From positions 286 to 64,285 of IMG/VR virus record IMGVR_UViG_3300030397_000812: a stretch of 64,000 bases of DNA; one strand, 5' to 3'. The notes beneath the pieces were generated by a model. It was not told the origin of the DNA, made no database searches, and saw only the letters and a list, made by a program, of their open reading frames with translations. Both the position numbers and the translations under genes were made by a program. Shown here piece by piece: positions 1 through 57,634 of the stretch (position 1 is its first letter; each line of letters opens with the position of its first letter). Source of the DNA: a virus.

Positions 1-371
1 ATCCCGCGAAACGCTAAGAAGTATAACGGGCAAGCCTGTGGGTGCTGCCGTCGATGGAACTTTTTAGCATACTGATTGAAGCGACCAGATAAGGGTGACA
101 AATCCACGATCTATACCATAGTCACACTGTGAAAGCTAAGAGGTGATTTCGGTTAGATCGGATAAGAGCGTATTTGCTCGGAGCGCATAAAATGAAAAGA
201 TTTTGCGCATCCTTTCGGCTACTGAGTAAGGTTGACAACTCGTAAATCGAATTAATTAGCTTGGTTCCACAAGCACTCAAGTAGCTGGAAATGAAATCTT
301 AAAAACAGTCTTAGTAATTCAGAATTGAAGCACATTAATTGTGTCTGTGACTCATTTATCACCTAAGACTG
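1..371 (+). ncRNA. Putative large structured ncRNA (GOLLD/ROOL-like class candidate); 5' part probably lies outside the window
   Basis: No ORF. Dense helices: 183-208 GCGCATAAAAT/ATTTTGCGC; 217-228 CGGCTACTGAGT with 275-287 ACTCAAGTAGCTG; 259-274 GCTTG/CAAGC; 306-314 CAGTCTTAG with 363-371 CTAAGACTG. Family assignment not verified. Confidence 0.6.
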
Positions 372-390
372 CAAACTAAAATTCAACAAA

Positions 391-588
391 ATGAAAATGC
401 TAATTCGTTTATTTTTCCTTGCTTCTATTGCCTTGGCTGTCTTGACAAGCTCATGCAGTCAAAAAATTCAAGGTGGGTATAATTCCCGTTCAAGTTCTCA
501 ATCCAAGTCGTACAACAAGAAACCGCACGCGGGTTCGAGAACGTGCGCCTACGAGAAAAACAGAAAAACAAGCACATTTAACTATTAG
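391..588 (+). CDS. Small lipoprotein (SPII signal)
   Basis: Basic N-terminus, hydrophobic stretch, lipobox-like LTSS-C22, short polar mature part. Confidence 0.7.
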   Translation: MKMLIRLFFLASIALAVLTSSCSQKIQGGYNSRSSSQSKSYNKKPHAGSRTCAYEKNRKTSTFNY

Positions 589-590
589 CC

Positions 591-695
591 ATGAGAAACG
601 AAAATGACATTCCAGATTGGTTAGACTTGGGTGAACCGAGTTACGAGGAATCTCTGGATTTCAACGACCAGCAAGAATTTTTGTTCATGCTCTAA
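591..695 (+). CDS. Small acidic hypothetical protein (34 aa, not in ORF track)
   Basis: ATG 2 nt after upstream stop; MRNENDIPDWLDLGEPSYEESLDFNDQQEFLFML*. Confidence 0.5.
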   Translation: MRNENDIPDWLDLGEPSYEESLDFNDQQEFLFML

Positions 696-697
696 AG

Positions 698-713
698 CGT
701 TCCACGTGGAACG
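698..713. promoter_or_regulatory. parS: parS-type centromere palindrome
   Basis: Intergenic perfect palindrome CGTTCCACGTGGAACG matching the conserved chromosomal parS consensus (GTTNCACGTGNAAC core). Confidence 0.75.
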
Positions 714-716
714 TTA

Positions 717-784
717 CCCCTTTTTTAATCGGGTCTTAGTGAGAATAACAAGCTAAGCGGGTTCGATTCCTGAACTAGGGGCAA
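717..784 (+). pseudogene. Degenerate tRNA-like remnant
   Basis: T-arm CGGG-TTCGATT-CCTG (758-772), hairpin CTTAG/CTAAG (735-757), partial acceptor CCCCT/AGGGG; no D-arm. Confidence 0.4.
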
Positions 785-792
785 TTTAAAAA

Positions 793-924
793 CGTCCTTA
801 TAGCATAACTGGATATGCGCCATCACTCATGATGAGTAAAATTACAGGTTTAGCGGCTTGCAATGATGGAGATAGGTAAAAAGTAAGTTTAGCGGCTTGC
901 TTGGTTCGAGACCACCAAGGACGG
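793..924 (+). ncRNA. tRNA(Met)-like cloverleaf carrying two inserted hairpins
   Basis: Acceptor CGTCCTT/AAGGACG; D-arm GCAT-AACTGGAT-ATGC; anticodon stem CCATCA/TGATGG with CT-CAT then ~31-nt insert; T-stem GGT+GG/CCACC split by 25-nt insert; T-loop TTCGAGA. Confidence 0.7.
848..900 (+). repeat. 14-nt direct repeat GTTTAGCGGCTTGC (848-861, 887-900)
   Basis: Exact repeat; each copy forms the loop and 3' strand of a hairpin with loop TTTAGCGG. Confidence 0.95.
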
Positions 925-970
925 CACTCTTTTAAATCAAACGGGTTCTTCAATCACGAAAATTTACAAT

Positions 971-1780
971 ATGAAAACATACAACAAAGAAACCATGAAA
1001 GCGGACGCCATTGCATTTATGCGAGGCAAGAACCGATTGCATGATTTGCACCCTCAAGTAATTGAGCAACTCAGGCAAGAAAACCAGCGCAATTTTGAAA
1101 AACTGCAAAGCTTGATCAAGGTTGAATTCGTATCTGGTCAACCCTATGAAACGGCTGAAGAATTGCGGCACAAAGTAGCTGAAGAAGGGGTGCTACTAAT
1201 ATCATCGGATAACAACAATAGCAAGTTGTTTGGCGAAGATCAGAACCTGAAATTTAGGGCGGTTCACGACTACTTCCATATCACGGGCTGTGAGTTCGGA
1301 TACATCGGGGAGGCTGAAGCGTACGAAATGCAGAAGCTTTGGTACTCTGCAAACTTGAGACCTATTCTGTACTCAGAAATCGTAATGCAAGCAGCATATT
1401 TTGACTACTTCGGATACTTTCCAGAAGATCAGAAAGTAGTAATACCTGACTTTGATAAATTCAAAGACGTTGCGAAAGATCACATCAGATTTTTCAGGAC
1501 GCAAACAGCCGGAACGTTAACGCAACAAAAGGCGTATGAATTTCACTTCAGAAAGCAGCACGGAGTTAGCGGAATACTCGTTAGGGAGGGAGTGAAAGGA
1601 GATCAAAATTGCGATTGGTGCAATGGTAATGGAGTTTCTGTTGCTGATTGTGGAGATTTCAATGAAATTCAAAGATGCGATTCATGCGAGTTATATAGCT
1701 CAGACAAAGAGGCGTTGGATGCTGTGAATAAAAGCATTGATTTACAAAAATCTATCGGAGCAACCCCTTTATTAATGTAG
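971..1780 (+). CDS. Chimeric hypothetical protein: FRAVHDxxH...GE domain + 34-aa cassette + CxxC/CxxC Zn-finger-like tail
   Basis: 269-aa ORF; NLKFRAVHDYFH motif; 103-bp cassette at 1464-1566; tail CDWC...CDSC. Confidence 0.75.
   Translation: MKTYNKETMKADAIAFMRGKNRLHDLHPQVIEQLRQENQRNFEKLQSLIKVEFVSGQPYETAEELRHKVAEEGVLLISSDNNNSKLFGEDQNLKFRAVHDYFHITGCEFGYIGEAEAYEMQKLWYSANLRPILYSEIVMQAAYFDYFGYFPEDQKVVIPDFDKFKDVAKDHIRFFRTQTAGTLTQQKAYEFHFRKQHGVSGILVREGVKGDQNCDWCNGNGVSVADCGDFNEIQRCDSCELYSSDKEALDAVNKSIDLQKSIGATPLLM
1464..1566 (+). repeat. 103-bp identical direct repeat, copy 1
   Basis: Identical base-for-base to 2030-2132 and read in the same frame (DVAKDHIRFFRTQTAGTLTQQKAYEFHFRKQHGV). Confidence 0.95.
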
Positions 1781-1968
1781 CATGTTAAATGGGTGAAAGG
1801 GTAAACCATTAGGAGTTGTGTTCATTTCGTACACAAGTCACTCATGTGGAATGACGGAAAAGGAAATGCTTGATGATGTTTCTGAAAGCTGGAGGGAATT
1901 CCATTTATTTAGAAGAACATCAGGGTTGAGCACTTGGAAAATCTAATAGAGAAACTAAAAAGTCAGTA

Positions 1969-2187
1969 ATGAAAATATCAGAAGAAACTTTCTGGAACGA
2001 GTACAAACCCGTCAAAAATGAGTTCGAAGAAGACGTTGCGAAAGATCACATCAGATTTTTCAGGACGCAAACAGCCGGAACGTTAACGCAACAAAAGGCG
2101 TATGAATTTCACTTCAGAAAGCAGCACGGAGTAAGAGAGGTCATTCGACCCGAAGATTTGCGAGCAATTGGCAATCCAGTTCATTAA
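1969..2187 (+). CDS. Truncated paralog of 4866-5144 fused to the 103-bp cassette
   Basis: N-terminus MKISEETFWNEYKPVKNEF vs MKIHEDDFWKNYKPQKNEL, then switches to the repeat-encoded peptide. Confidence 0.6.
   Translation: MKISEETFWNEYKPVKNEFEEDVAKDHIRFFRTQTAGTLTQQKAYEFHFRKQHGVREVIRPEDLRAIGNPVH
2030..2132 (+). repeat. 103-bp identical direct repeat, copy 2
   Basis: Identical to 1464-1566. Confidence 0.95.
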
Positions 2188-2327
2188 ACGAAACAAACCT
2201 TTCTGAAATATGGATGGCGAAGCGCTGATTATGGGCGAGGAAAAGCCCATCATTGAAATAGAGTACGAAGAAGATGGTGAAATCTCTTGTGAAGTCGTAC
2301 CGATTTGAGAAACTAAAACACACAACA

Positions 2328-2825
2328 ATGAAATACCTAGTAACATTAAAGCTGCATCTCGGCGAGTACGAGAAAAGCAATCAGCACATCGTTGATGCTA
2401 AGTCAAGCATAGACGCGGGGGTCATAGCCCTTAAGAACGAGTGCCATAACACGCCTGATTTCCCTAACAAAGAAACCGCTTGGGATGGTGTCGATCTTGT
2501 GTATAAGGTTAGATCAGTCATTGGTTTAACCGATCTTGAGTACGAAATCCTAAGCAAACTGAAAGAGCGAGCTCTACTTACTGTTTTGTCTAGGGGTGAG
2601 AAAGTAAAAGTGGTGACGGCATTTGGTGAGCAGTTGACTAAGTCAATAGCGAATGGTGATGATCCCGAATCTGATGATGGCGGACAATTTGTGACGAGAG
2701 AATTCGAAACGAAGGCTGAGGCTCAAGCATACATGTTAGCGCTTTCGGACATGGACGGCTATTGGGAATCATATGTACTGACTGGTGATGAGATCGAAAA
2801 ATATTCAAACGAAATATCGAGATAA
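2328..2825 (+). CDS. Hypothetical protein, apparently two small phage proteins fused
   Basis: ATG 2328 follows an A-rich leader; the halves MKYLVTLKLHLGEYEK...EILSKL and EKVKVVTAFG...FETKAEAQAY...DGYW look like separate small proteins (inference). Confidence 0.65.
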   Translation: MKYLVTLKLHLGEYEKSNQHIVDAKSSIDAGVIALKNECHNTPDFPNKETAWDGVDLVYKVRSVIGLTDLEYEILSKLKERALLTVLSRGEKVKVVTAFGEQLTKSIANGDDPESDDGGQFVTREFETKAEAQAYMLALSDMDGYWESYVLTGDEIEKYSNEISR

Positions 2826-3447
2826 AAGAAAACAAGTCTGTGGTGGGCATGCTTGCGAAGTGAGACTTGGTAAAAAGGGAGCGCAAGATAGGATCGCATT
2901 TGGAGAGAGCAGAAGGATGGCTCGTAAATCCGGTGTAGCATTTCCTAATACGGAGCAGAATGCCTTGGCTATGAAGCTTTTTGGAACGTATGGAGATCAG
3001 GGGGAGTTCGTAATTGGAACAGGGATGTTCGGACAAGATCACGACCCTTCTATTGAAGATTACAACAGACCTCCATCATCACAGCCAGGGTTGTGGTGTA
3101 AGTGGGAAGTTGTTGATGGTGAGTTGCAGTGGGATGGTCGTGAGAAGTTCTACGACTACATTGAATGGCTTGAATATATGATTGAGAAGTTCTTCAAGCC
3201 TTGGGGAATTGTATTGGATGGTTCTATCAACTGGCAAGGGGAAGCCCACTCAGATAGAGGAACCATCTTCTGCGTCTCAAATAAGGTTACCACGCAAGAG
3301 GGCGGGGCGAAAGACATCCCAACGCCGGAGGTAGCTGAAGTGAAGGAGGCATTAGGATCGCTTAATGATGTGATTAACTTCTTGGATGATGGATCGGACA
3401 AGTATAGTGATATGATAACGATCAGATCATTTATTGAGGCTCAGTAA
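2785..3447 (+). CDS. Conserved phage hypothetical protein (PPxxQPGLWCxW / WDGxEKFY family)
   Basis: Motifs RPPSSQPGLWCKW, WDGREKFYDYIEWLEYMI, WQGE recognised from memory; start codon uncertain. Confidence 0.7.
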   Translation: MMRSKNIQTKYRDKRKQVCGGHACEVRLGKKGAQDRIAFGESRRMARKSGVAFPNTEQNALAMKLFGTYGDQGEFVIGTGMFGQDHDPSIEDYNRPPSSQPGLWCKWEVVDGELQWDGREKFYDYIEWLEYMIEKFFKPWGIVLDGSINWQGEAHSDRGTIFCVSNKVTTQEGGAKDIPTPEVAEVKEALGSLNDVINFLDDGSDKYSDMITIRSFIEAQ

Positions 3448-3480
3448 CAAAAGAAATTGAATTGTGTGTTTCATAGTGTT

Positions 3481-3516
3481 AAGAGGTTCGGGGTGTGGAA
3501 TTCACCCCGCCCTCTT
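3481..3516 (+). ncRNA. GC-rich hairpin at the start of a structured region
   Basis: AAGAGG/CCTCTT plus CGGGGTG/CACCCCG, loop TGGAATT; no U-tract. Confidence 0.5.
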
Positions 3517-3542
3517 CACTTGTGACTCGCAAAAAGAAATAA

Positions 3543-3626
3543 GCCATGCGATTGATGAACTGGAGTTTTAAAAATTCAGAGGTTCTCTACCAAGGCGCGG
3601 ACAGCCCTCCGGCTCGGTCGTGTGGC
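3543..3626 (+). ncRNA. Putative multi-stem RNA element
   Basis: 13 consecutive pairs 3543-3555 with 3614-3626 (4 G-U wobbles) enclosing two inner hairpins; followed by TTTT. Confidence 0.55.
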
Positions 3627-3931
3627 TTTTAAAAGAAATGTTCAAGTTGATCACTATCATCGTCGGGTTAGTATTCTCCGGCGGTGATCCGGTGGTTGAA
3701 CTCACAATCGGCAGCGACAGCGCTGATCGCACCGTGGTGACTAGTGCAATACTGACTTACAATCGCCCTAAATATGAAGGGAAAAAACACAGAGTCAGGA
3801 TACACTCACCGCGTGAGATTCCACTACATGAGGTGTACATAGAAAGTGAGGACAAACCACCAGAACGAAGCCCGTGTTGTGCTGACGGGATTATAATATC
3901 AGCACATCCGACAAAGAGTAAAGTAAAATAG
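3620..3931 (+). CDS. Doubtful ORF overlapping a structured RNA region
   Basis: 103-aa ORF with hydrophobic N-terminus, but the sequence is saturated with helices; may be non-coding. Confidence 0.3.
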   Translation: MWLLKEMFKLITIIVGLVFSGGDPVVELTIGSDSADRTVVTSAILTYNRPKYEGKKHRVRIHSPREIPLHEVYIESEDKPPERSPCCADGIIISAHPTKSKVK

Positions 3932-3942
3932 ACAACGTCGGA
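3667..3942 (+). ncRNA. Putative structured ncRNA running into the tRNA-like element
   Basis: Helices 3667-3675/3748-3756, 3682-3689/3725-3734, 3712-3725, 3805-3817, 3858-3865/3899-3906, 3907-3912/3937-3942. Confidence 0.5.
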
Positions 3943-4024
3943 GTGGGTAGTGGTGCAATTGGTAGACACCTTACGAGGCTGAGTGTAATTGCTCAGTGCG
4001 GGTTCGAGTCCCGCCTATCCACCA
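3943..4024 (+). ncRNA. Class-II (Leu-like) tRNA-like RNA lacking a normal anticodon arm
   Basis: Acceptor GTGGGTAG/CTATCCAC; D-arm GTG-CAATTGGTAGA-CAC; only CTTACGAGG where a 17-nt anticodon arm belongs; long arm CTGAG/CTCAG; T-arm GCGGG-TTCGAGT-CCCGC; ends ACCA. Confidence 0.75.
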
Positions 4025-4043
4025 AACTAACAATTCAAATATT

Positions 4044-4358
4044 ATGGACACACAAATCACAAGAGAAAACTTTTGGTTCAAGCTGGCAGAGTGCTGGGAG
4101 AAACGAGCCAACAAGAAAGGGTTGAAATTCAGAGAAGATTTTGATGAATACCTAGATGGCGAACATCCGAATGCACCTTACTTGAGGGCTGAGCTAGAAT
4201 TCTATCTGGGAGCGTTTAATGCCGCTTGCGTTTTCGCTGGGAAATTCCCGATTCAAGACGAGCATATGAGCGATCTTGATCCAGTGGTTTTATTCTCAGG
4301 AATGAGGGGTGACAGCATCACGAAAACGTTTTTGGAACTCAAATCTAAGAAAGGATGA
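4044..4358 (+). CDS. Hypothetical protein
   Basis: ATG after an A-rich leader downstream of the tRNA-like element; overlaps next gene (ATGA). Confidence 0.7.
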   Translation: MDTQITRENFWFKLAECWEKRANKKGLKFREDFDEYLDGEHPNAPYLRAELEFYLGAFNAACVFAGKFPIQDEHMSDLDPVVLFSGMRGDSITKTFLELKSKKG

Positions 4359-4864
4359 AAAGGTACAACTTAGAAACTGGATGCATGGGTGCTTTATACC
4401 CGTCTACGGACAACATATATTCTGTCATTGATAATGTTGAAGCCATGTTTCCTTGGATTTTGAAGGACTTCAATAGGCATAGGAAGCACTGGAGGGTTCA
4501 TATTATATGTAAGGGAAGCTCAGGATTGATGCGAGCCACTTTCTTAGCTGAAAGATTTTACAAGGAAAATATAGATGTTTCCATATCTTTTGATAACAGA
4601 GGCGCGCATTCTGTAGCCCATGATGAACATGCCGGATCATGGATGTTTGATGATAGCTATTATCAATTAATCGTAGATGATTTCTGCTGCTCATGTAGAA
4701 CCATGCGAAAAATCGCTAGCTACATAAATGAATCGTGCGAAGACCCAGTGACAATTAATGCGATAGTTGTTAATTCAGGAGCGAGAATGATTGAGGAGCA
4801 CATCTTCGACATTCTTAATGAAAAACCCAACTTGAAAATAAAGAAAATTGTAAACGTACAGTAA
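4355..4864 (+). CDS. Phosphoribosyltransferase-fold protein (divergent)
   Basis: IICKGSSGLMRATFLAE and LIVDDFCCSCRTM resemble type I PRTase motifs (hhhhDDhhxTGxT). Confidence 0.55.
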   Translation: MKRYNLETGCMGALYPSTDNIYSVIDNVEAMFPWILKDFNRHRKHWRVHIICKGSSGLMRATFLAERFYKENIDVSISFDNRGAHSVAHDEHAGSWMFDDSYYQLIVDDFCCSCRTMRKIASYINESCEDPVTINAIVVNSGARMIEEHIFDILNEKPNLKIKKIVNVQ

Positions 4865-4865
4865 G

Positions 4866-5144
4866 ATGAAAATTCACGAAGACGATTTCTGGAAAAATTA
4901 CAAACCTCAAAAGAATGAGCTTGTCGACGACGCGCCTTTCAACGGATGCATGTACGAAACGTACGGAGAAGAATTAGAGTACGTTCAAAGGTGGAATAGG
5001 CAGTTCGAAACAACTGTCTGGACGGTTCTTGACGTTGATGGTGAGTTGATCATCGGTGCGGGAATGTCGTTCGTCAATCGAATGGGGTACATTATCACAG
5101 AAAAACCGTGGAACAGTTTGGATGATGAAGTTTTAGATGCTTAA
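4866..5144 (+). CDS. Conserved phage hypothetical protein
   Basis: MYETYGEELEYV...VWTV...GMSFVNRMGYIITEKPW; paralog fragment at 1969. Confidence 0.75.
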   Translation: MKIHEDDFWKNYKPQKNELVDDAPFNGCMYETYGEELEYVQRWNRQFETTVWTVLDVDGELIIGAGMSFVNRMGYIITEKPWNSLDDEVLDA

Positions 5145-5155
5145 TTTGCAGGATC

Positions 5156-5641
5156 ATGGAAAATAAAAAGGTAAAGATGGTCTGCTCTCAATGTGGGAGC
5201 GGCGATGTTAAGAAGGACGCATACGCAGTTTGGGATGCTGTTACTCAGCAATGGGAGGCATGCGCTGTATTCGACAAAGGCGATGTGTGCGAATCGTGCT
5301 GTGGCGAAACAACAATCAAGGAGGTTGCCTACGATCCTGAAGATGTGAATTATACTGTCTTTGGTTCGCATGGAGAGATTACCATTGACAAGATTGGGTA
5401 TGTCATTGAGATCAGCCACGATCTTCAGGCAGATTCCGGTGAAGAAAGAGAGTACATCGGTATTGAAAGATTCGATGTTATTGAGTACGAGATGTTCTTG
5501 AAATCCAAGGGATTTGAAATGCCTGAGCATGGCATCGACATCCTCGACATTTCGTACTGGCAAAACGGTGAGTTTGTGAAATTTGAGCAATCTCACCGAG
5601 ATGAAATTATTTTAGCTTGGAAAGAAAGCAGGAAATCATGA
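5156..5641 (+). CDS. Hypothetical protein with N-terminal Zn-ribbon
   Basis: CSQCGS...CESCCG motifs, acidic C-terminal half. Confidence 0.7.
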   Translation: MENKKVKMVCSQCGSGDVKKDAYAVWDAVTQQWEACAVFDKGDVCESCCGETTIKEVAYDPEDVNYTVFGSHGEITIDKIGYVIEISHDLQADSGEEREYIGIERFDVIEYEMFLKSKGFEMPEHGIDILDISYWQNGEFVKFEQSHRDEIILAWKESRKS

Positions 5642-5826
5642 GGGAATTACATGAGCCAATTTTTCAAATTGGAGAAAGGGTAAAATACATCGGGGTTAAT
5701 TCACCATATGGTGAATCGGTAATTGAAGATATAGACATTAAGAAAGATCACCTCTTGTCACTACGGCGAGATCATGAAGGAGATTTACACAAAAGCAAGG
5801 AAAAAACTAAACGAAGAAAATCATGA
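5638..5826 (+). CDS. Small SH3/KOW-like hypothetical protein
   Basis: FQIGERVKYIG motif; ATGA overlaps at both ends; internal SPYGESVIEDIDIKK resembles the shared C-terminal tag. Confidence 0.55.
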   Translation: MRELHEPIFQIGERVKYIGVNSPYGESVIEDIDIKKDHLLSLRRDHEGDLHKSKEKTKRRKS

Positions 5827-6317
5827 ACAGCACGACACATCACCATCCCAACAATGATTGGGTAAGGTTCACTATCACGGTTTTGATATTCCTGATAGGA
5901 CTATTCTTTCTCAATCAATTGAGAGCCCAAGAACAAACAGGAAGAGTTGAAATTCCGATTGGATCAAGTCTTGTTTTCATGGACTCGTCTGGATCGCAGC
6001 CTGAGCTGTACAGCATCGTTCCAGGAATGAATGAGGGTGAGTACGGTCTATTGTTTTACTACGAGAAGAATCAGAAGTGGTACAGACATGCTTATCTGGG
6101 CAGCTTGATAGAATCAGGATCGGAGAATGAAAATGAGTATTGGGAATTTTTACTCAAAACACTTGGAGATGATGATATTCCAATTTACATTTACACCCGA
6201 TTTACATTCAAAGGGGAGATGATTGAGTACGAGCTGACTAGATACAGGAGGGAAAAAGGAGAGCTAGTACAATTCAGTCATTTCGGAATGATACTCACAG
6301 TAATTTGGAAGACATGA
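5823..6317 (+). CDS. Exported/membrane-anchored protein
   Basis: Hydrophobic segment FTITVLIFLIGLFFL then LRA-Q (Bacteroidota SPI-type cleavage); beta-rich mature domain. Confidence 0.7.
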   Translation: MNSTTHHHPNNDWVRFTITVLIFLIGLFFLNQLRAQEQTGRVEIPIGSSLVFMDSSGSQPELYSIVPGMNEGEYGLLFYYEKNQKWYRHAYLGSLIESGSENENEYWEFLLKTLGDDDIPIYIYTRFTFKGEMIEYELTRYRREKGELVQFSHFGMILTVIWKT

Positions 6318-6691
6318 AGAATCTTGTTGGGGTCAGGGATATAACGAAGCATATCACTTGTGAAATCTTCGGGATTCCCGTTAAGATAGAAGCCCATTAC
6401 GACCGGATACGCGGTGACAAAGGAAGGGTATTCCTTCAGTCTGTCTACAATGCGCCATGCACCAAAACCGGAGAGGATATGGAGTGGAAGGGGCGTAAGT
6501 ATTACCTTTCCGATTACATGACTGACGATGAGATTGTCAAGACCGCGTACACTTGTTTCAAGACGGCTGTCGAACACGAGATTATGGAGGGGTTTAAGTT
6601 CGATGGAGTAATCGTATTCAATCCACATGTTGATTTTCTAAAACTGATGGAAATATCCCATCATGAAATTGAAAGAGAAAACCATGAATAA
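6305..6691 (+). CDS. Conserved phage hypothetical protein (WxGRKxxLS...EHExxExF...NPH)
   Basis: Motif pattern recognised from memory; coupled to neighbours. Confidence 0.75.
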   Translation: MEDMKNLVGVRDITKHITCEIFGIPVKIEAHYDRIRGDKGRVFLQSVYNAPCTKTGEDMEWKGRKYYLSDYMTDDEIVKTAYTCFKTAVEHEIMEGFKFDGVIVFNPHVDFLKLMEISHHEIERENHE

Positions 6692-6890: not shown

Positions 6891-7729
6891 AATCCAAATG
6901 GATCAAGGATTTGTTTGATAAAAACAATGAGTCCAGTACTTTGAGTGACAGTAATTCCATTGGGGATTCCTTCATATGGAAAAACACTGATGAGGGGTGG
7001 AAATTTTGGGATTTAGTAAGTGGGGGTAGGGAGTCTGAGGCGATCGAATTCTATGAGAAAAACATCGGACCAATACCGGATGAGGGTGATGACATCCCAA
7101 ATATCCTAAATATTGGAGACAGGGTTCAAATAATGAGCGGATGGGACGATCCAACTGTTCCTGATTCTCTACAAGTCGGATGTATTGGATATGTAAACAA
7201 GAGGGCAAATATACCTGATTGTTTCATTATAGAGGATCAGGATGGGGATCGAACGCACATATTCCACAAGAGGTTCTTGAAGAAGACAAAGAAAACCAGG
7301 AAAACGATTGACAATTCCCTAATGTTTGAGGTCGGGGAATATTTCTCTATGCTTAGACCAAGTACAAATGGTCACCTGAACACTGGGGATATTGTTAAGA
7401 TCGTTTCAATTGATCCTCCACCAGAGCTTCATACCAAAGACCAGTGGCTTCCTTATTTCGTCGAGCGAGTTATGGACGGTAAATCTAGCGTTCAGGATTG
7501 GGTCAGAGAGCACTGGTTGAAACCGGAAATGGAATTCAATGCAATAGATCAATATAATAGGGCTGGAAACGTTGTCCTACATCACTCCATAAAGAAAAAT
7601 CCACTCACTAAAGATGAGTGTTTCGTTAAGGAAAGTGGTTCGACTTGCGTGGTGGATTTGAAAGCACTCGAAAAACCAAACCCATATAACGAAACCGATC
7701 TCAAAGAACTTGATCTTAAAAAGGTATAG
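6866..7729 (+). CDS. SH3/KOW-like repeat protein with shared C-terminal tag
   Basis: LNIGDRVQI and FEVGEYF/LNTGDIVKIV modules; ends NPYNETDLKELDLKKV*. Confidence 0.75.
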   Translation: MGITRGEIKSKWIKDLFDKNNESSTLSDSNSIGDSFIWKNTDEGWKFWDLVSGGRESEAIEFYEKNIGPIPDEGDDIPNILNIGDRVQIMSGWDDPTVPDSLQVGCIGYVNKRANIPDCFIIEDQDGDRTHIFHKRFLKKTKKTRKTIDNSLMFEVGEYFSMLRPSTNGHLNTGDIVKIVSIDPPPELHTKDQWLPYFVERVMDGKSSVQDWVREHWLKPEMEFNAIDQYNRAGNVVLHHSIKKNPLTKDECFVKESGSTCVVDLKALEKPNPYNETDLKELDLKKV

Positions 7730-8395: not shown

Positions 8396-8764
8396 ATGGC
8401 AGATTCTGCACCTAAAGGTTGGCTTCAAACCGTCCTCGCTGCACTACAAGGTGGTGACGAGGGAAAATTGAAGCGTCTTCAAAAGAAGGCAATCAAACAA
8501 TTGGAAGATTCTAAGCTTGCTAACAATCGAGAGATCGAGGAGAAGCGAGAGCGAATTGCTGATTTGCGAGAATCACTTTCCGACACTGTTTCATCCCCTG
8601 ATGTTGAACAGATCAAAACCACTGAAGCTGCGAAATCATACGCTCGTTCGTATGTGAGTAGCCTCAAGGAAATTCTGGGAAATATCAAGGATGTAGAGAA
8701 CGGCATAGAACACCTCGAAGAGGAGAATGCCGTCTACGAAGAGGTTCTTGAGCTTCTCCAGTAG
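8396..8764 (+). CDS. Helical coiled-coil protein resembling a family seen in Bacteroidota phages
   Basis: All-helical heptad pattern; WLQTVLAALQGGDEG N-terminus; family link from memory only. Confidence 0.75.
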   Translation: MADSAPKGWLQTVLAALQGGDEGKLKRLQKKAIKQLEDSKLANNREIEEKRERIADLRESLSDTVSSPDVEQIKTTEAAKSYARSYVSSLKEILGNIKDVENGIEHLEEENAVYEEVLELLQ

Positions 8765-8814
8765 GGAGTATCGGGAATGTAAATTCCAAAAAGGGGGCGA
8801 CATGCCCCCAATAA

Positions 8815-8879
8815 GCCGGAGTAGCTCAGTTGGTAGAGCGCATATTGAGGTCGGGGGTTCGAATCCCTCTTCCGGCTCA
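8815..8879 (+). ncRNA. tRNA-like RNA with the anticodon arm deleted
   Basis: GCCGGAG/TTCCGGC acceptor; TA; GCTC-AGTTGGTA-GAGC D-arm; G; only CATATTG (7 nt instead of 17); AGGTC; GGGGG-TTCGAAT-CCCTC T-arm; T-CA. Confidence 0.85.
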
Positions 8880-8897
8880 ACATTAAATTCTAAAGAC

Positions 8898-9218
8898 ATG
8901 AGCAGACCAAGATATTACATCACGAAGAATGCAGATAGAACATCCTCTGCTATTACAGACAAAGAAACGTTTAGCACAGACGTTTTATCTGAAGCCGTCG
9001 GGGTGGTCCATGCCAGGGGCGGAACTATTATTTGGGACGATCAGGAGATGAAGTTCTTTAAGATCAAGTCTGGTCAGGGAGCGGGCACTTCTTCCCAAAA
9101 GAAAATGTACGCCAATCTTGTTGCGCAGGAGTTGCGAGACATTCTCAAGCACAACAATGGAAGATTTGATCCACTGTACATTAGCGGAGAGAATGTGTGG
9201 AGTGGCGGCGTCTACTAA
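8898..9218 (+). CDS. Hypothetical protein
   Basis: ATG at 8898 (track start 8727 runs through the tRNA-like element and is unlikely). Confidence 0.65.
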   Translation: MSRPRYYITKNADRTSSAITDKETFSTDVLSEAVGVVHARGGTIIWDDQEMKFFKIKSGQGAGTSSQKKMYANLVAQELRDILKHNNGRFDPLYISGENVWSGGVY

Positions 9219-14052: not shown

Positions 14053-15355
14053 ATCAATACTCTCACCGCCGGGTCTTAATTACTACCCCTACCAGGAGGA
14101 GGGAATCATATTTTCTAGGGGCAAAAAGCGCGTCTTGATAGCTGATGAAATGGGTCTTGGTAAGACCGCTCAAGCTATTGGTATAATCAATGACAACCAG
14201 TATGAGCGCATTCTTATCATCTGTCCCGCCTCTTTGAAGATCAATTGGGAAAGAGAGCTACAGATGTGGCTACATAATCAAGAGCTCATAATCAAACAGG
14301 CGACATCTCGGAAGTTCTACAACCGTGAGGAATGCGACATAGTCATAATGAACTATGATATCGCTGATAGGTTAAGGAACGAGATGAGAGAGGATGAGTG
14401 GGACATGATCATCATGGATGAAGCGCACTACATTAAGTCCTCTAAAGCCAAGAGAACTAGAGCAATTGTCGGCTACCGAGATATCCCGCCATTAGATGCT
14501 GAGAAGATCGTCTTACTGACCGGCACCCCAATGGCTAATCGACCGGCTGATTTATGGACGATATGCCATTACCTTTCTCCGAATGTATTCAAGGATATGT
14601 GGGCTTTCAAGAAGCGTTACTGTGATCTTAAGTACATTCGTCGATTCAAGAGATGGGACGATTCCGGCTCTTCAAATCTAGAGGAGCTAGGATTGAAAAT
14701 GAAGGGCTTTATGATACGTCGATTCAAGAAAGACGTACTCACCGAGTTGCCGCCAAAGACATTCCAGGTCCATGAAATAAGACCAATGGGTGAGCTATCT
14801 CCATTGATTGCAGAGGAGAAAAAGCTTACCGAATTTGTTGACGAATCGGCTAGGGTTAAAGTAAAGCTTGAAGACACATCCAGGATTCGAAAAGAGTTGG
14901 GATTATCAAAAATCTCATCTGTCATCAATAGGTTGAAAGACATGCTTGAGCAATCAGATGACAAAATCGTTGTGTTCGCTCATCATAGAGAGGTTATTGA
15001 AAGAGTCAAGGAGGAGTTCGGAAATACTTGTGCCATGGTCTACGGCGGTATGAGTGGAAAAGCGAAGCAAGCTGAGATCGATTTATTCAAGGAAGATCCA
15101 AAGGTTCGTGTATTTGTAGGATCCATCACTTCAGCTGGAGTTGGCATAACCCTTGTAAATTCCTCCACGTTGGTATTCGCTGAGATGGATTACTCTCCAG
15201 GCAACATGAAGCAAGCGGAAGACAGAATTCATAGAGTCGGTCAGTACGCCGACATGGTGAATATCCATTATATGGTGTACACAAATAGCCTAGATGCGAA
15301 CATTGCTTACAGATTGATTGAGAAAAATGACATCATACACAAAACAATTGGGTGA
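14045..15355 (+). CDS. SNF2-family (SMARCAL1/HARP-like) helicase
   Basis: ADEMGLGKT, DEAH, LLTGTP, KIVVFAHH, QAEDRIHRVGQ. Confidence 0.95.
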   Translation: MDKSILSPPGLNYYPYQEEGIIFSRGKKRVLIADEMGLGKTAQAIGIINDNQYERILIICPASLKINWERELQMWLHNQELIIKQATSRKFYNREECDIVIMNYDIADRLRNEMREDEWDMIIMDEAHYIKSSKAKRTRAIVGYRDIPPLDAEKIVLLTGTPMANRPADLWTICHYLSPNVFKDMWAFKKRYCDLKYIRRFKRWDDSGSSNLEELGLKMKGFMIRRFKKDVLTELPPKTFQVHEIRPMGELSPLIAEEKKLTEFVDESARVKVKLEDTSRIRKELGLSKISSVINRLKDMLEQSDDKIVVFAHHREVIERVKEEFGNTCAMVYGGMSGKAKQAEIDLFKEDPKVRVFVGSITSAGVGITLVNSSTLVFAEMDYSPGNMKQAEDRIHRVGQYADMVNIHYMVYTNSLDANIAYRLIEKNDIIHKTIG

Positions 15356-22862: not shown

Positions 22863-22864
22863 TG

Positions 22865-22938
22865 TAGCGGGAGAGGGATTCGAACCCCCGACCTCTAGGT
22901 TATGAGCCTAGCGAGCTACCGGACTGCTCCACCCCGCT
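22865..22938 (-). tRNA. tRNA-Met (CAT), fMet-like body
   Basis: Full cloverleaf AGCGGGG...TCCCGCT-A; anticodon loop CT-CAT-AA (22904-22902); A1-U72 paired and AGG/CCT anticodon stem, so not a canonical initiator; no encoded CCA. Confidence 0.95.
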
Positions 22939-22942
22939 TACG

Positions 22943-22950
22943 CAAATATA
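22943..22950 (-). promoter_or_regulatory. Bacteroidota -7 box TATATTTG (tRNA promoter)
   Basis: 4 nt upstream of tRNA 5' end. Confidence 0.7.
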
Positions 22951-55363: not shown

Positions 55364-57634
55364 CTAGTCTTGTTTTTCTGAATCAGAGTCTTTATCTTCG
55401 CTCTCCTTCTTATCAGCAAGTTCTGCCACCTTTGTTTCATTCATTCGCTGAGACTCTCGGTCCCTGGCGTCGGCGTTAATTTTCTGTTCATTGATCTTAC
55501 CTTGAGACTTCATCATCTCAATTCTCATCTCCCACTGCTTTTCTCTATCGATGAGACCGGCTTTTATCTTAGCCTCCATTTGCAGTGTTTGCTGCTTAGC
55601 TGCCTCCGCCTCTTTCGCAGCTTTAGAATTTGCTTCAGCCTGATCTTTGATGTGTTGTTGTTGCCTATTTCTAGCCTCCTCTAAATTCTTCTCAACGATG
55701 TATCCAAGGTACATTAAGGCGTGTTTCTTGTTATCAATTTGCTCAAGAAAGGCTCTTTGTGCAACTGTAATTTGAGCGGCTGACCCTTCAGGTGTGGCGG
55801 CGGCTATTTCGAGCGCTCTATTGAATCTTTCTTCCTCCTCCATAGTGGGCTTATGGACAAAATACAGCCCGAGAGAACGCATTGAGTGGTCCTTTGTGAT
55901 TTTGAAGAAGTTAACAGAATTTGTTCCGACTGCTGGCGCATAAAATTCAATTTCATCATCCTCCGCCTGATCTTGAATTCTCATTATAATGTTCTCAGAC
56001 ATGGAGAGTTCATTCAACTGAACTGCATCGTGAATGTGTTTCAATGCATTGTTTGTTGAAGCAGCTGCTTGCTGAGCAACGCTTTTCAGTGTTCGGGGGT
56101 TTGGAGAGGAGCCGTCGACTAGGTCATTTAAGCCAGTGATGGACCGAAGCAGGTTTTCGTAATACGCTATGAGCTCCATGAATTCCTGACCCTCCTTACC
56201 TAAGCCGCCTTGAAGTTCGGTTATTGGAAGAGAGTGTCTATTGCCGTCCTCATCAACAGCTCGAATGGCTATATTACCCTTAGTGTTGTAGGTGAGAATG
56301 TTTTCCTCCGGCTCCATTCCTCCTTCACCAAAAGATACGGCTTCCAGGGCTGTCAAGTCATAAGCGATCCCGGAAGGTCTTGCGGCTAAGATTGCGCCCT
56401 GGAGTTTCACCCAGGCAATTTGCATGGCATCAATGATCGGAACAACTTGTGTGCCAATCGAGTTGATTGCCATGTGGTTCATCTCAGGAGCATTGATGCT
56501 GTAGGTTGTCTTAGCAACTTTCACGTCATCTGGATCCCTAAGAACAAATTCCTTTCTTTTCAATCCAAAAAATACATCTGTTCCCAGAATGTTCCACCCC
56601 TCATAGACGATGTCATACTCAGCATCCATGAATTCCTTATTCTTCTTCCCGGAAGACTCCCTACCGAAAACCTTTCTACCATCCTTCGTGACTCTTAACT
56701 CGTAAGTCTCTGATTCCCCGGAAATAAACTCGCAGTACACGCAATTTAACATCGAGGAGGTTAAATCCTGATCCTCCTTTAAGGCGTCTTTCTTTTCCTG
56801 ATACTCTCGAGTTTCTGGATGACGATTTTCCATCAACTTCTCGATTTCCCTAACCGCGTCTTTATCCCTATCATCCAGGCACAGCCTGTAGATTTCAGCT
56901 GGAGTCATCCTCTTAACTTCACCGGCAAATTCCAGGTCTGAAAAATCATTCTCCTCAGAATAGGCGCTCCAGAAAAACTCTGGATCAATGTACTCAGCCC
57001 ATATAGTGCCATCCTGCTCCTCCCAGTCCCTGGTAATGCACACGCCAAGATCGTAAAGGTCCTCAACTAATTTCTTGTAAGTTTTCTGGTCGTACTTATT
57101 TCTGTTCTTGATTAGTTTAAGTATTGTTTCAAACTCGACAGCTGAAATGTGCTTAAAGGAATACTCCATGAACATTTCCAACTCTTTCTGATCTGCCGGA
57201 ATGTCATCAGGTAATCCCACCTCAGAAGGATTGACTCCCTGCTCCAATAATTTATCGCGGAGAATAATATCTGACATTTTACCAGCGAAGAAATCCTCCT
57301 TTTCTTCCATTGCCAACGCATCAAGCATCTCAATAGCCATCTCCTCCTTCATCGCCATGATTATCTGGATTGCGATCCTTCTGTACTTGGAATGAATATC
57401 GAGCATCCTCCAGTTAATCTTTGCACTGGAGTCGTCTGCGTTTGCTAAATCATCGGGGATGACGATCTTCTGGTAACGAACCGGTGAGACCGTGCCGTTC
57501 ATGTACTGCCGAATCTCAGCAATATTTTCTTTATCTCGATAAAAGAACCTGTTTTTTGATCCAGAAAATCCCTCCCACGCAGATTTCATGAAGGTCTCTA
57601 CGTATTCTCTTTCTTTCTTAGGCAGTGCTGGCAT
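55364..57634 (-). CDS. Portal protein (crAss-like)
   Basis: 756 aa, follows TerL; KINWRMLDIHSKY, TGLNDLVDGS, NNALKHI, Q/E-rich barrel tail. Confidence 0.85.
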   Translation of the reverse strand: MPALPKKEREYVETFMKSAWEGFSGSKNRFFYRDKENIAEIRQYMNGTVSPVRYQKIVIPDDLANADDSSAKINWRMLDIHSKYRRIAIQIIMAMKEEMAIEMLDALAMEEKEDFFAGKMSDIILRDKLLEQGVNPSEVGLPDDIPADQKELEMFMEYSFKHISAVEFETILKLIKNRNKYDQKTYKKLVEDLYDLGVCITRDWEEQDGTIWAEYIDPEFFWSAYSEENDFSDLEFAGEVKRMTPAEIYRLCLDDRDKDAVREIEKLMENRHPETREYQEKKDALKEDQDLTSSMLNCVYCEFISGESETYELRVTKDGRKVFGRESSGKKNKEFMDAEYDIVYEGWNILGTDVFFGLKRKEFVLRDPDDVKVAKTTYSINAPEMNHMAINSIGTQVVPIIDAMQIAWVKLQGAILAARPSGIAYDLTALEAVSFGEGGMEPEENILTYNTKGNIAIRAVDEDGNRHSLPITELQGGLGKEGQEFMELIAYYENLLRSITGLNDLVDGSSPNPRTLKSVAQQAAASTNNALKHIHDAVQLNELSMSENIIMRIQDQAEDDEIEFYAPAVGTNSVNFFKITKDHSMRSLGLYFVHKPTMEEEERFNRALEIAAATPEGSAAQITVAQRAFLEQIDNKKHALMYLGYIVEKNLEEARNRQQQHIKDQAEANSKAAKEAEAAKQQTLQMEAKIKAGLIDREKQWEMRIEMMKSQGKINEQKINADARDRESQRMNETKVAELADKKESEDKDSDSEKQD

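Follow-up and report, generated by a model that had tools for sequence, protein, structure and literature searches.

The locus examined herein raises the question of whether a long structured interval between two phage genes represents a single large noncoding RNA (ncRNA), or whether several distinct elements are carried on one transcript. The initial annotation described about 540 nt of continuous RNA structure at positions 3481-4024, and proposed one large ncRNA that is matured at its 3′ end via a tRNA-like module and is overlapped by a possibly spurious open reading frame (ORF). Based on modeled structures, we somewhat favor a different reading, rather than one giant ncRNA. The region would be an early-operon cassette composed of a 190-nt leader with two hairpins, a 97-residue orphan gene, and a tRNA-Leu derivative lacking an anticodon arm, wherein RNase P may generate the 3′ end of the mRNA by cutting at the tRNA-like element. 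All positions refer to the 64-kb stretch of phage DNA that was analyzed (the window).

Judging from sequence, the host is most likely a Flavobacteriia-like member of the Bacteroidota, the phage is most likely temperate, and the span most likely resides within an early rightward operon. Portal, terminase, and integrase genes are present in the phage record, and the only GenBank relatives of the portal are from Flavobacteriia phages. The gene starts of this phage are A-rich and generally lack SD motifs, with SD-like sequences at only 11% of them. The ORF has a GC content of 0.48-0.49 compared to ~0.41, and across the span GC is raised and a dip in GC skew is seen. Two genes flank the span:

2788-3447, + strand: upstream gene, whose stop codon is at 3445-3447
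4044-4358, + strand: downstream gene of 104 codons, called as a gene and with normal codon statistics (synonymous score 0.050, amino acid score 0.142), whose start is masked by a predicted helix

Whereas the genuine tRNA-Met gene of the phage has a promoter box (TAtaTTTG) 5 nt upstream, the tRNA-like element has no promoter of its own, and no TAnnTTTG-type box was found on the + strand at positions 1-6688. A search of the leader for sigma-70-like promoters and for terminators was negative, and neither a promoter nor a terminator was found between the ORF stop and the tRNA-like element. This lack of its own promoter or terminator makes co-transcription of the span with the neighboring genes likely, and the cassette is likely to be part of a longer transcript. 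Separate promoters for the ORF or for the tRNA-like element were considered and rejected because no promoter-like site was found.

The 3′ portion of the span carries the following features:

3943-4022, + strand: non-decoding tRNA-like element derived from tRNA-Leu, with acceptor, D, and T arms intact and no usable anticodon arm
3978-3997, + strand: 8-bp hairpin with a UAAU loop, located in place of the anticodon and variable arms

The tRNA-like module proposed for the 3′ end is real, as judged by matches to Rfam tRNA and by ARAGORN, but it had been described incorrectly as arm-less, given that it has three good arms in addition to the 8-bp hairpin. The Rfam tRNA model (RF00005) scores 31.2 bits versus a gathering score of 29, which places the element only just above threshold, and ARAGORN reports a “tRNA-???” in which the loop has 8 nt and the “anticodon” has four (gctg). 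The acceptor stem has 7 bp (3944-3950/4015-4021), with G3943:C4022 as an eighth pair. The T arm (3998-4014) has a 5-bp stem and the canonical loop UUCGAGU (UUCRANY type), and the D stem (3953-3955/3967-3969) is of the 3-bp Leu type with the loop AAUUGGUAGA, including the D-loop nucleotides G18 and G19. Where an anticodon arm is expected, a 7-nt linker (UUACGAG, 3971-3977) precedes the 8-bp hairpin, which has a predicted stability of -9.1 kcal/mol (z -4.7, 0 of 200 shuffles). This fold is better by 8.2 kcal/mol than a cloverleaf with a UUACG/UGUAA arm, which adds only -1.8 kcal/mol, and the element therefore lacks a standard anticodon arm, namely a stem of 5 bp and a loop of 7 nt in which U33 precedes a 3-nt anticodon.

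The resemblance to type II tRNA-Leu (RF00005) includes a 20-nt D-arm string that tRNA-Leu genes from many phyla share exactly (of its 39 genomic matches, 33 are annotated as tRNA-Leu), the 3-bp D stem and its loop, the T arm, the 7-bp acceptor, and a length that is nearly that of real tRNA-Leu genes. Unlike these tRNAs, the phage element has the 8-bp hairpin instead of an anticodon stem with its loop and U33, and it has C rather than A at position 73. A73 is the discriminator and a leucine identity element of bacterial tRNA-Leu. The letters A-C-C-A at 4021-4024 are present as reported. However, alignment with tRNA-Leu genes places C4022 at discriminator position 73, followed by CAA, and no CCA is encoded in register. 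To read A-CCA, the acceptor would have to be limited to 6 bp. The C discriminator and the out-of-register CCA make the details of maturation uncertain. We speculate that a G-1:C73 pair would fit histidine identity.

Two other tRNA-related assignments were rejected. Despite the 8-bp acceptor and long arm, tRNA-Sec or allo-tRNA does not fit, with 34.2 bits versus 47 and no anticodon. A tmRNA was rejected because ARAGORN found none and both acceptor strands lie within 80 nt of each other.

RNase P, RNase Z, and the CCA-adding enzyme recognize the stack of acceptor and T arm together with the elbow, and the anticodon arm is not needed. By its sequence, the element keeps all that RNase P and the 3′ processing enzymes need, namely the 8-bp acceptor, the 5-bp T stem, the T loop, and G18 and G19. 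The retention of these RNase P features, and the start of the element 12 nt after the ORF stop with no promoter or terminator between them, make 3′-end formation at the module plausible, and this portion of the earlier proposal is retained here.

It is also conceivable, if rather improbable, that the locus holds inert relics: a decaying tRNA-Leu pseudogene next to an ordinary orphan gene, with hairpins and complementarity that have no function save perhaps in mRNA stability. Phage tRNA genes are dispensable, which is compatible with decay, and the near-normal length of the element suggests that sequence change, rather than designed truncation, explains the lost arm. Arguing against decay, the acceptor, D, and T arms are entirely undamaged, and a perfect 8-bp hairpin stands in place of the lost arm. 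Moreover, a second tRNA-like element (8815-8877) in the same operon has likewise lost its anticodon arm and has the same intercistronic geometry, with a GC hairpin just upstream and a 20-nt unstructured leader preceding ATG 8898.

The relic explanation also fits poorly with the region upstream of the ORF, which carries these features:

3449-3457, + strand: AAAAGAAAT, first exact copy, right after the stop codon at 3445-3447, then TTG 3457
3481-3516, + strand: hairpin 1, GC-rich, 6+7 bp, stacking directly on the closing helix described below, with no U-tract after it
3532-3540, + strand: AAAAGAAAT, second exact copy, between hairpins 1 and 2
3543-3626, + strand: hairpin 2, in which a 13-bp stem and a 6-bp helix stack to ~20 bp below a three-way junction, with UUUU after it
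3631-3639, + strand: AAAAGAAAT, third exact copy, the last two bases of which open ATG 3638

The 190-nt intergenic leader (3448-3637) lies within the most structured 300-nt segment of the entire 64-kb stretch. Specifically, segment 3401-3700 ranks first of 637 in a regression corrected for GC and skew, with a shuffle z of -5.8, and the leader folded as a whole (3448-3628) yields z -5.0. Hairpin 1 is borne out as originally described, with a predicted stability of -20.2 kcal/mol (z -4.4) that none of 200 shuffles equaled. The G-U-rich 13-bp stem that had been noted at 3543-3555/3614-3626 is present and includes four G-U pairs, but alone it is marginal (z -1.9, 7 of 200 shuffles). This stem continues into the 6-bp helix and three-way junction to form hairpin 2, which reaches -30.3 kcal/mol and, taken alone, a z of only -1.9 to -2.1. 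An intrinsic terminator at hairpin 1 or hairpin 2 was rejected because no terminator-like site was found.

The sequence AAAAGAAAT occurs 11 times in the window versus 3.0 expected (0 of 100 shuffles), and three of these copies are within the leader. Mini-ORFs of 22 codons (3457-3525) and 28 codons (3546-3632) follow the first two copies and span hairpins 1 and 2, respectively; neither is longer than expected by chance.

The span appears to be delimited by a long-range helix, newly described here, that is predicted to pair with the start codon of the downstream gene:

3458-3480, + strand: 5′ arm of the closing helix, starting 11 nt past the stop codon of the upstream gene and holding a CAU (3472-3474) that pairs with the AUG at 4044-4046
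4038-4059, + strand: 3′ arm of the closing helix, comprising the last 6 nt of the leader of the downstream gene, AUG 4044, and the next four-and-a-bit codons

This predicted helix has 21 bp, including 3 G-U pairs, and a calculated stability of -21.8 kcal/mol. Because it closes exactly around the span as first reported, it supports the view that the span is one unit. Among 28 early start sites, such a partner is unique to AUG 4044, and in a global partition function the accessibility of this start site is dominated by the long-range helix. The 5′ arm also has an alternative local partner (3517-3531), with which it would form an extended hairpin (3462-3532) of -33.1 kcal/mol and z -5.65. The closing helix is statistically solid only with its position taken as given. 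If a partner anywhere within 870 nt is accepted, P=0.0047 for each start site, and the survey covered 28 such sites. Among natural sequence pairs at the same spacing, 24 of 3165 (0.8%) match its energy. This reduced significance under a natural-sequence null and multiple testing lends some weight to the relic explanation.

Between the leader and the tRNA-like element lie the two remaining features:

3638-3931, + strand: orphan ORF of 97 codons, from ATG 3638 to TAG 3931, with a signal-peptide-like N terminus; leans toward coding
3907-3942, + strand: hairpin of 6 bp whose 24-nt loop contains the ORF stop codon, ending one base before the tRNA-like element

The six further helices that had been noted at 3667-3942 were not confirmed beyond chance, and the ORF body is not more strongly structured than confident genes of this phage, among them a helicase gene. 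The body has a shuffle z of -3.4, compared to -3.1 to -4.0 for confident coding segments, and its windows rank only 31 and 76 of 637 in the regression control. Permutation of synonymous codons gives z -3.28 versus -2.9 to -4.1 for pieces of confident genes. Hairpin 3907-3942, at its end, has a predicted stability of -6.6 kcal/mol (z -2.9, 2 of 200 shuffles). Of the continuous ~540-nt structure, the leader and the tRNA-like element stand, but the ORF body does not exceed coding genes. Because the confident genes here are equally structured, strong predicted RNA structure in ORFs of this phage does not argue against coding.

The sequence of the ORF itself leans toward coding. The previously assumed start, GTG 3620 (103 amino acids), is replaced by the plausible start at ATG 3638, and the resulting frame is called by gene finders. 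A 97-codon ATG frame arises in only 1.5% of dinucleotide shuffles of the gap (P=0.015), and so is longer than chance allows. Its start context, AAAAGAAATG, is A-rich and SD-less, matching other genes of the phage and thus a host-type initiation region. In addition, the start lies in an unstructured pocket between strong structures (3627-3660, -0.3 kcal/mol), with a stability that 193 of 200 shuffles equal or surpass. The encoded N terminus reads M-F-K, a 10-residue hydrophobic run, and then S-G-G. The hydrophobic score of this region is reached by 4.6% of shadow ORFs, and the amino acid composition is better than that of 93% of shadow-frame chunks. The product would probably be secreted or membrane-anchored.

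Codon statistics are unlike those of the phage's genes. The synonymous codon score (-0.133) is lower than that of any of 132 chunks of equal size from confident genes, and 88% of shadow-frame chunks score higher, while the frame advantage falls at the 1.5th percentile for coding chunks, a value reached by 28% of shadow ORFs. In composition and codon use, the ORF diverges from the rest of the phage as would a “moron” acquired elsewhere. No homologue of the product was found among about 15 billion proteins. Word-indexed and exhaustive searches, covering 5.8 billion clusters and 1.84 billion representatives, respectively, recovered only the protein itself. Likewise, tblastn yielded no match in GenBank phages, no Pfam or PHROG family was assigned, and no confident fold was obtained from single-sequence AlphaFold2 (pLDDT 39.5) or the ESM Atlas (0.38).

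These last observations favor the large-ncRNA explanation, by which positions 3458-4037 form one structured RNA that is closed by the helix, matured at its 3′ end by RNase P, and overlapped by a spurious ORF. The shadow-like synonymous codon use and the absence of a homologue, family, or fold are what a spurious frame would give. Also in accord with this explanation are the whole-span folding energy (MFE z -3.7), the resemblance of the closing helix to the P1-like stem of large RNAs, and the raised GC content and skew dip across the span. In addition, large phage ncRNAs often adjoin tRNA genes. However, a large ncRNA should lack a credible reading frame, whereas the open frame here is improbable under that model, and its near-ideal start context, the unstructured pocket around that start, and its signal-peptide-like N terminus would have to be coincidences. 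The proposal that the ORF is spurious is not supported by these features, nor by its gene-like level of structure. In addition, no Rfam family beyond the tRNA clan matches the span at E up to 10, and the genome holds no paralogue. We judge it unlikely that the span is one large ncRNA.

An ORF of foreign-like composition, followed by a tRNA copy with a hairpin for its anticodon arm and flanked by inverted arms, also calls to mind a mobile-element scar. In this scenario, the cassette or its ORF would be a present or past selfish insertion at a tRNA-Leu gene or a pre-existing hairpin. The remodeled anticodon region would give immunity to the nuclease of the element, and the flanking arms would be either the two halves of a split target hairpin or inverted repeats at the termini of the insertion. 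Other genomes do hold, at four loci, tRNA-Leu genes that share this D arm and are interrupted. However, even with E allowed up to 10, no signature of a GIY-YIG, HNH, or other nuclease appears in the ORF, its only match being a non-significant one to TIG (E 0.17), and an ORF encoding a GIY-YIG or other nuclease was rejected for this reason. No target-site duplication was seen, and no second copy exists in the genome or in any collection searched. Furthermore, the three positions at which the arms depart from Watson–Crick pairing are all G-U in the + strand, a pattern more suited to a helix formed in RNA than to a DNA repeat in decay. We consider a mobile-element origin very improbable.

Searches for relatives recovered only 100% identical contigs, with no related sequence to the span in viral, metagenome, genome, or phage collections. 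Three other contigs carry the ORF, each 100% identical. A blastn search of positions 2500-5000 against GenBank phages gave no relative. Peptide-seeded scans of IMG/VR with the ORF, both neighboring genes, a PRTase-like gene, and the portal gave relatives for the upstream gene only (37-46% identity), whose loci have no tRNA or Rfam match. Exact and degenerate DNA patterns of the tRNA-like element found no relative in IMG/VR, an 18-mer across its odd junction produced 8 matches in 241 million metagenome records, all by chance, and a 22-mer of the T arm and acceptor was absent from GTDB genomes. The triple-motif architecture matched 13 sites in IMG/VR, all unrelated AT-rich repeats. The cmscan search suggested in the initial annotation, run both at gathering thresholds and with E allowed up to 10, returned only tRNA-clan matches and noise. 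ROOL, GOLLD, and all other Rfam families outside the tRNA clan were rejected on this basis.

Returning to the early-operon cassette, these parts could function together as follows. Host RNase P would cut the transcript 5′ of the tRNA-like element, at either 3942/3943 or 3943/3944, leaving the upstream mRNA with the 3907-3942 hairpin as its 3′ end. A 3′ tRNA-processing nuclease would then cut after C4022, thereby releasing a stable tRNA-like RNA of ~80 nt and leaving the downstream mRNA with an unstructured A-rich leader of ~21 nt. The tRNA-like element would serve as intercistronic punctuation rather than as a decoder. In uncut transcripts, the 21-bp helix would close the cassette and bury the AUG of gene 4044, in competition with the local extension of hairpin 1. 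Because the helix is predicted to bury this AUG and to compete in this manner, translation of gene 4044 may be tied to the folding or processing of the cassette.

If this processing model is true, all that the phage retains of a tRNA is the half recognized by host maturation enzymes, and this half-tRNA serves as a cutting signal between early genes. A bacteriophage would thereby follow the same principle as mitochondrial “tRNA punctuation” and MALAT1/mascRNA. Likewise, the long-range helix, if true, would be a rare case in a DNA phage of start-codon masking over several hundred nucleotides.

A bolder interpretation, which we regard as doubtful, is that the span represents a new class of large phage RNA. 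Such an RNA would consist of a ~580-nt domain, the 21-bp helix that masks the next start, and the tRNA-Leu-derived element as an RNase P release handle, with a body that is noncoding or doubles as an mRNA. By analogy, this class could be the bacterial-virus counterpart of MALAT1/mascRNA. If true, and considered along with the other tRNA look-alikes of this phage that lack an anticodon arm, the phage would use tRNA shapes as RNA-processing punctuation of its early operon.

Several known systems share individual features with this locus. ROOL and GOLLD are large ncRNAs of phages and prophages, and the span resembles them in size class, phage setting, and tRNA-gene neighborhood. Unlike these RNAs, it matches no large-RNA family at E up to 10, and an ORF fills most of its length.

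The 3′ ends of the long RNAs MALAT1 and MEN-beta are formed by RNase P at a tRNA-like structure. As with mascRNA (RF01684), the phage element is a tRNA-like structure that has no functional anticodon arm and is located 3′-terminally in a longer transcript, and RNase P cleavage, here only predicted, would leave the upstream RNA with a structured 3′ end. In contrast, the mascRNA system is eukaryotic and nuclear, whereas the upstream RNA in the phage is probably protein-coding. The mascRNA model scores 19.6 bits versus a gathering score of 42.5 (E 0.29), and there is no sequence relationship.

RNAs from phage tRNA clusters, such as T4 species 1 and 2, are processed out of longer transcripts, and RNase P also cleaves within polycistronic mRNAs. 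The T4 species 1 and 2 RNAs (rnaC/rnaD), which are stable and non-decoding, and phage and bacterial tRNA-mRNA co-transcripts are similar to the present case in placing tRNA-shaped RNAs among early phage genes. The phage described here differs in that its elements are single and intercistronic, in one fixed arrangement of a hairpin, the element, and then a leader of ~20 nt.

The FopS and GibS sRNAs of Bacteroides (RF04319; PMC11697453) use a CAU segment to pair with a translation initiation region. They resemble the 5′ end of the span in having a single-stranded anti-start CAU segment followed by a GC hairpin, with a similar seed, although the FopS model scores only 21.2 bits versus a gathering score of 56 (E 0.99). 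Unlike these sRNAs, the phage span has neither a TAnnTTTG promoter nor a U-tail, and its predicted pairing occurs in cis across 560 nt.

Finally, the “Min Jou” interaction of MS2 is an example of long-distance start-site masking in an RNA phage. There, as predicted here, the start of a downstream gene is paired to a segment several hundred nucleotides upstream. The present phage has a DNA genome, however, and its upstream arm, instead of lying within a translated gene, is found 11 nt past a stop codon.

Between the gene at 2788-3447 and the gene starting at 4044 lies a cassette that is, on a somewhat better than even reading, a composite: a leader rich in structure, an orphan gene of small size, and a tRNA-Leu derivative that does not decode but acts as a processing site, with a long-range helix that would close the unit and mask the next start codon. 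The initial annotation had described about 540 nt of continuous RNA structure ending in a tRNA-like module and had interpreted it as one large noncoding RNA; the observation was confirmed in part, and the interpretation is supported in part. Searches of viral, metagenome, genome, and phage collections yielded no relatives of the cassette by any route, and the three other contigs carrying its ORF are identical.

Features of the cassette and related elements
3448-3637, + strand: leader of 190 nt immediately past the stop of gene 2788-3447, with two hairpins
3481-3516, + strand: hairpin 1 (-20.2 kcal/mol, z -4.4)
3543-3626, + strand: hairpin 2, a 13-bp G-U-rich stem, 6 bp more, and a three-way junction
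3638-3931, + strand: ORF of 97 codons, ATG 3638 to TAG 3931, the plausible frame and the same as that of the gene callers
3943-4022: tRNA-like element
8815-8877: second tRNA-like element, scoring 50.4 bits as a tRNA and not detected by ARAGORN
22864-22950, - strand: tRNA-Met (CAU), the sole canonical tRNA, preceded at a distance of 5 nt by a TAtaTTTG box of the Bacteroidota type

The virus record measures 65.6 kb, nearly all of it inside the window, and includes portal, large terminase, helicase, primase, and integrase genes. Genes are tightly packed on the + strand from 1 to about 22.5 kb, and the cassette occupies one of the few gaps in this run. The portal gene (55364-57634, - strand) has 87 GenBank phage matches, all to Flavobacteriia phages at about 25% identity (under 26%); these phages of Flavobacterium, Cellulophaga, Tenacibaculum, and Maribacter are its only GenBank relatives. 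The matches suggest Flavobacteriia as the likely host class and show that this phage lineage lacks close sequenced relatives. Taken with A-rich start regions, of which an SD-like motif is present in just 11% for confident genes, and with the TAtaTTTG box 5′ of the genuine tRNA-Met gene, the portal relatives point to a Bacteroidota host.

Among 637 overlapping 300-nt windows compared with GC and skew corrected for, 3401-3700 ranks first in structure (shuffle z -5.8), the whole leader has a z of -5.0, and its two hairpins are jointly exceptional in structure. The first hairpin, proposed in the initial annotation, was borne out. The stem and junction proposed for the second are likewise present, but taken singly this hairpin is marginal (z about -2). 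Three exact copies of the 9-nt motif AAAAGAAAT, 83 and 99 nt apart, bracket the hairpins, with a TTG or ATG no more than 6 nt after each copy; the third provides the ATG of the ORF. With 11 copies in the window versus 3.0 expected (0 of 100 shuffles), eight of them outside 3449-3639, this phage may favor the motif as an initiation or enhancer context.

The earlier claim that structure continues through the ORF did not hold as an excess over confident genes. The ORF body has a z of -3.4 against dinucleotide shuffles and looks unusual beside 41 spaced control windows (lowest z -2.8); in the early region, however, z is as low as -3.1 to -4.0 in those confident coding windows that are most structured. 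A regression control ranked the ORF windows 31 and 76 of 637, and synonymous-codon permutation gave the ORF a z of -3.28 versus -2.9 to -4.1 in pieces of confident genes, helicase included. Because confident genes are equally structured, the ORF structure, although thermodynamically real, is no argument against coding. A single large noncoding RNA spanning the cassette is unlikely. Across the early region of this phage, mRNA structure appears to be general. Confident coding stretches at 8401-8700, 14600-14890, 7106-7396, and 5345-5635, the helicase gene among them, have strong excess structure (shuffle z down to -4.0, synonymous-permutation z to -4.1).

Whether the ORF is spurious, as had been suggested, is a matter on which the evidence divides. 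Dinucleotide shuffling of the 496-nt gap yields a frame of this kind in only 1.5% of cases, its start context resembles that of other phage genes and lies in an unstructured pocket, and its N-terminus resembles a Sec signal whose hydrophobic score is matched by 4.6% of shadow ORFs. Its amino-acid composition exceeds that of 93% of shadow-frame chunks. Against coding, its synonymous codon use falls below that of every one of 132 chunks of the same length from confident genes, and its frame 0 advantage is at the 1.5th percentile of coding. GC is 0.48-0.49 versus about 0.41, with a dip in GC skew. The ORF has no Pfam or PHROG family match and no confident fold for its product; two very large protein searches and tblastn returned no homologue. 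A spurious frame accounts only for the evidence against coding, whereas an orphan gene of foreign composition (a “moron”) accounts for the evidence on both sides; thus, the ORF is probably coding. That the cassette consists of inert relics is rather improbable. Elsewhere, a 65-codon ORF at 391-588 with a lipoprotein-type signal lies upstream of a tRNA-like cluster (717-924) and likewise scores poorly in codon use (synonymous -0.035, amino-acid -0.110). It is thus the second small ORF for an exported protein in this phage that has tRNA look-alikes after it.

The tRNA-like element scores slightly above threshold with the Rfam tRNA model, and ARAGORN reports just an 8-nt loop with a four-base “anticodon.” Its 20-nt D-arm string is unchanged in 39 genomes of many phyla, 33 of the 39 sites being called tRNA-Leu; this shared string identifies it as a derivative of a type II tRNA-Leu, its length nearly kept. 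The initial description as “arm-less” must be revised: the acceptor (7 bp, extended to eight by G3943:C4022), the 3-bp D stem with its loop, and the T arm are intact. Between them lie a linker of 7 nt and a hairpin of 8 perfect base pairs (3978-3997, z -4.7), a fold that beats the cloverleaf by 8.2 kcal/mol; the cloverleaf anticodon arm adds just -1.8 kcal/mol. With a hairpin in place of the anticodon arm, the element cannot decode. Position 73 is C, unlike the A of tRNA-Leu, and is followed by CAA. Both the tRNA-Met (A-CAA) and element 8815-8877 (U-CAA) share this ending, so that CCA addition would need to follow trimming. That the cassette is a mobile-element scar is very improbable. Four bacterial loci sharing the D-arm string (L058, L061, L040, and L073, from Chloroflexota, Butyricimonas, Saccharibacteria, and a MAG) continue from the tRNA-Leu acceptor/D-arm string into non-tRNA sequence, in L058 followed by a complete second tRNA-Leu; they look like interrupted or nested tRNA-Leu genes.

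The + strand from 1 to 6688 contains no TAnnTTTG box, so the tRNA-like elements there lack the promoter feature of the real tRNA. Element 3943-4022 begins 12 nt past the ORF stop codon, which sits in the loop of hairpin 3907-3942 immediately upstream; on its other side, 21 nt of unstructured, A-rich leader separate it from the ATG of gene 4044. The intergenic second element, with a mere 7 nt in place of the anticodon arm, has the same geometry: a GC hairpin (~8793-8809), the element itself, 20 nt of leader without structure, and then ATG 8898. This ATG is probably the true start of the listed ORF 8727-9218. RNase P, RNase Z, and the CCA-adding enzyme require only parts of a tRNA that are preserved in element 3943-4022. 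Its lack of a promoter, its position, and the repeated geometry suggest that it would serve as punctuation, a processing site between genes, at which we infer cleavage by tRNA enzymes.

A new observation of this analysis is that 3458-3480, right after the first AAAAGAAAT copy, is complementary to 4038-4059 (21 bp including 3 G-U pairs, interrupted by one bulge and a single mismatch; -21.8 kcal/mol). This closing helix stacks on hairpin 1, belongs to the minimum free energy structure of 3448-4062, and places AUG 4044-4046 opposite CAU 3472-3474; in the ensemble, the unpaired probability of 4040-4054 is 0.01. None of 3000 shuffled start regions equaled the pairing of gene 4044 with the leader head, for positions picked after the match was seen, and P = 0.0047 when any partner ≤870 nt upstream is allowed. 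Only gene 4044, among 28 early start regions, has such a partner, and other start regions reach at best -15.2 with this leader head, which is not comparable. Among natural sequence pairs spaced this far apart, 0.8% attain the same energy. A nearby segment, 3517-3531, competes for the 5′ arm and, by pairing with it, would lengthen hairpin 1 (-33.1 kcal/mol, z -5.65); the two pairings are mutually exclusive. Beyond the closing helix, CAAAAG (3448-3453) could form a 6-bp outer helix with CUUUUG (4070-4075).

The Rfam match of the 5′ arm plus hairpin 1 to the FopS/GibS sRNAs is non-significant (21 bits, E 0.99), but the two resemble these RNAs in layout. The FopS/GibS sRNAs of Bacteroides mask start codons (PMC11697453).
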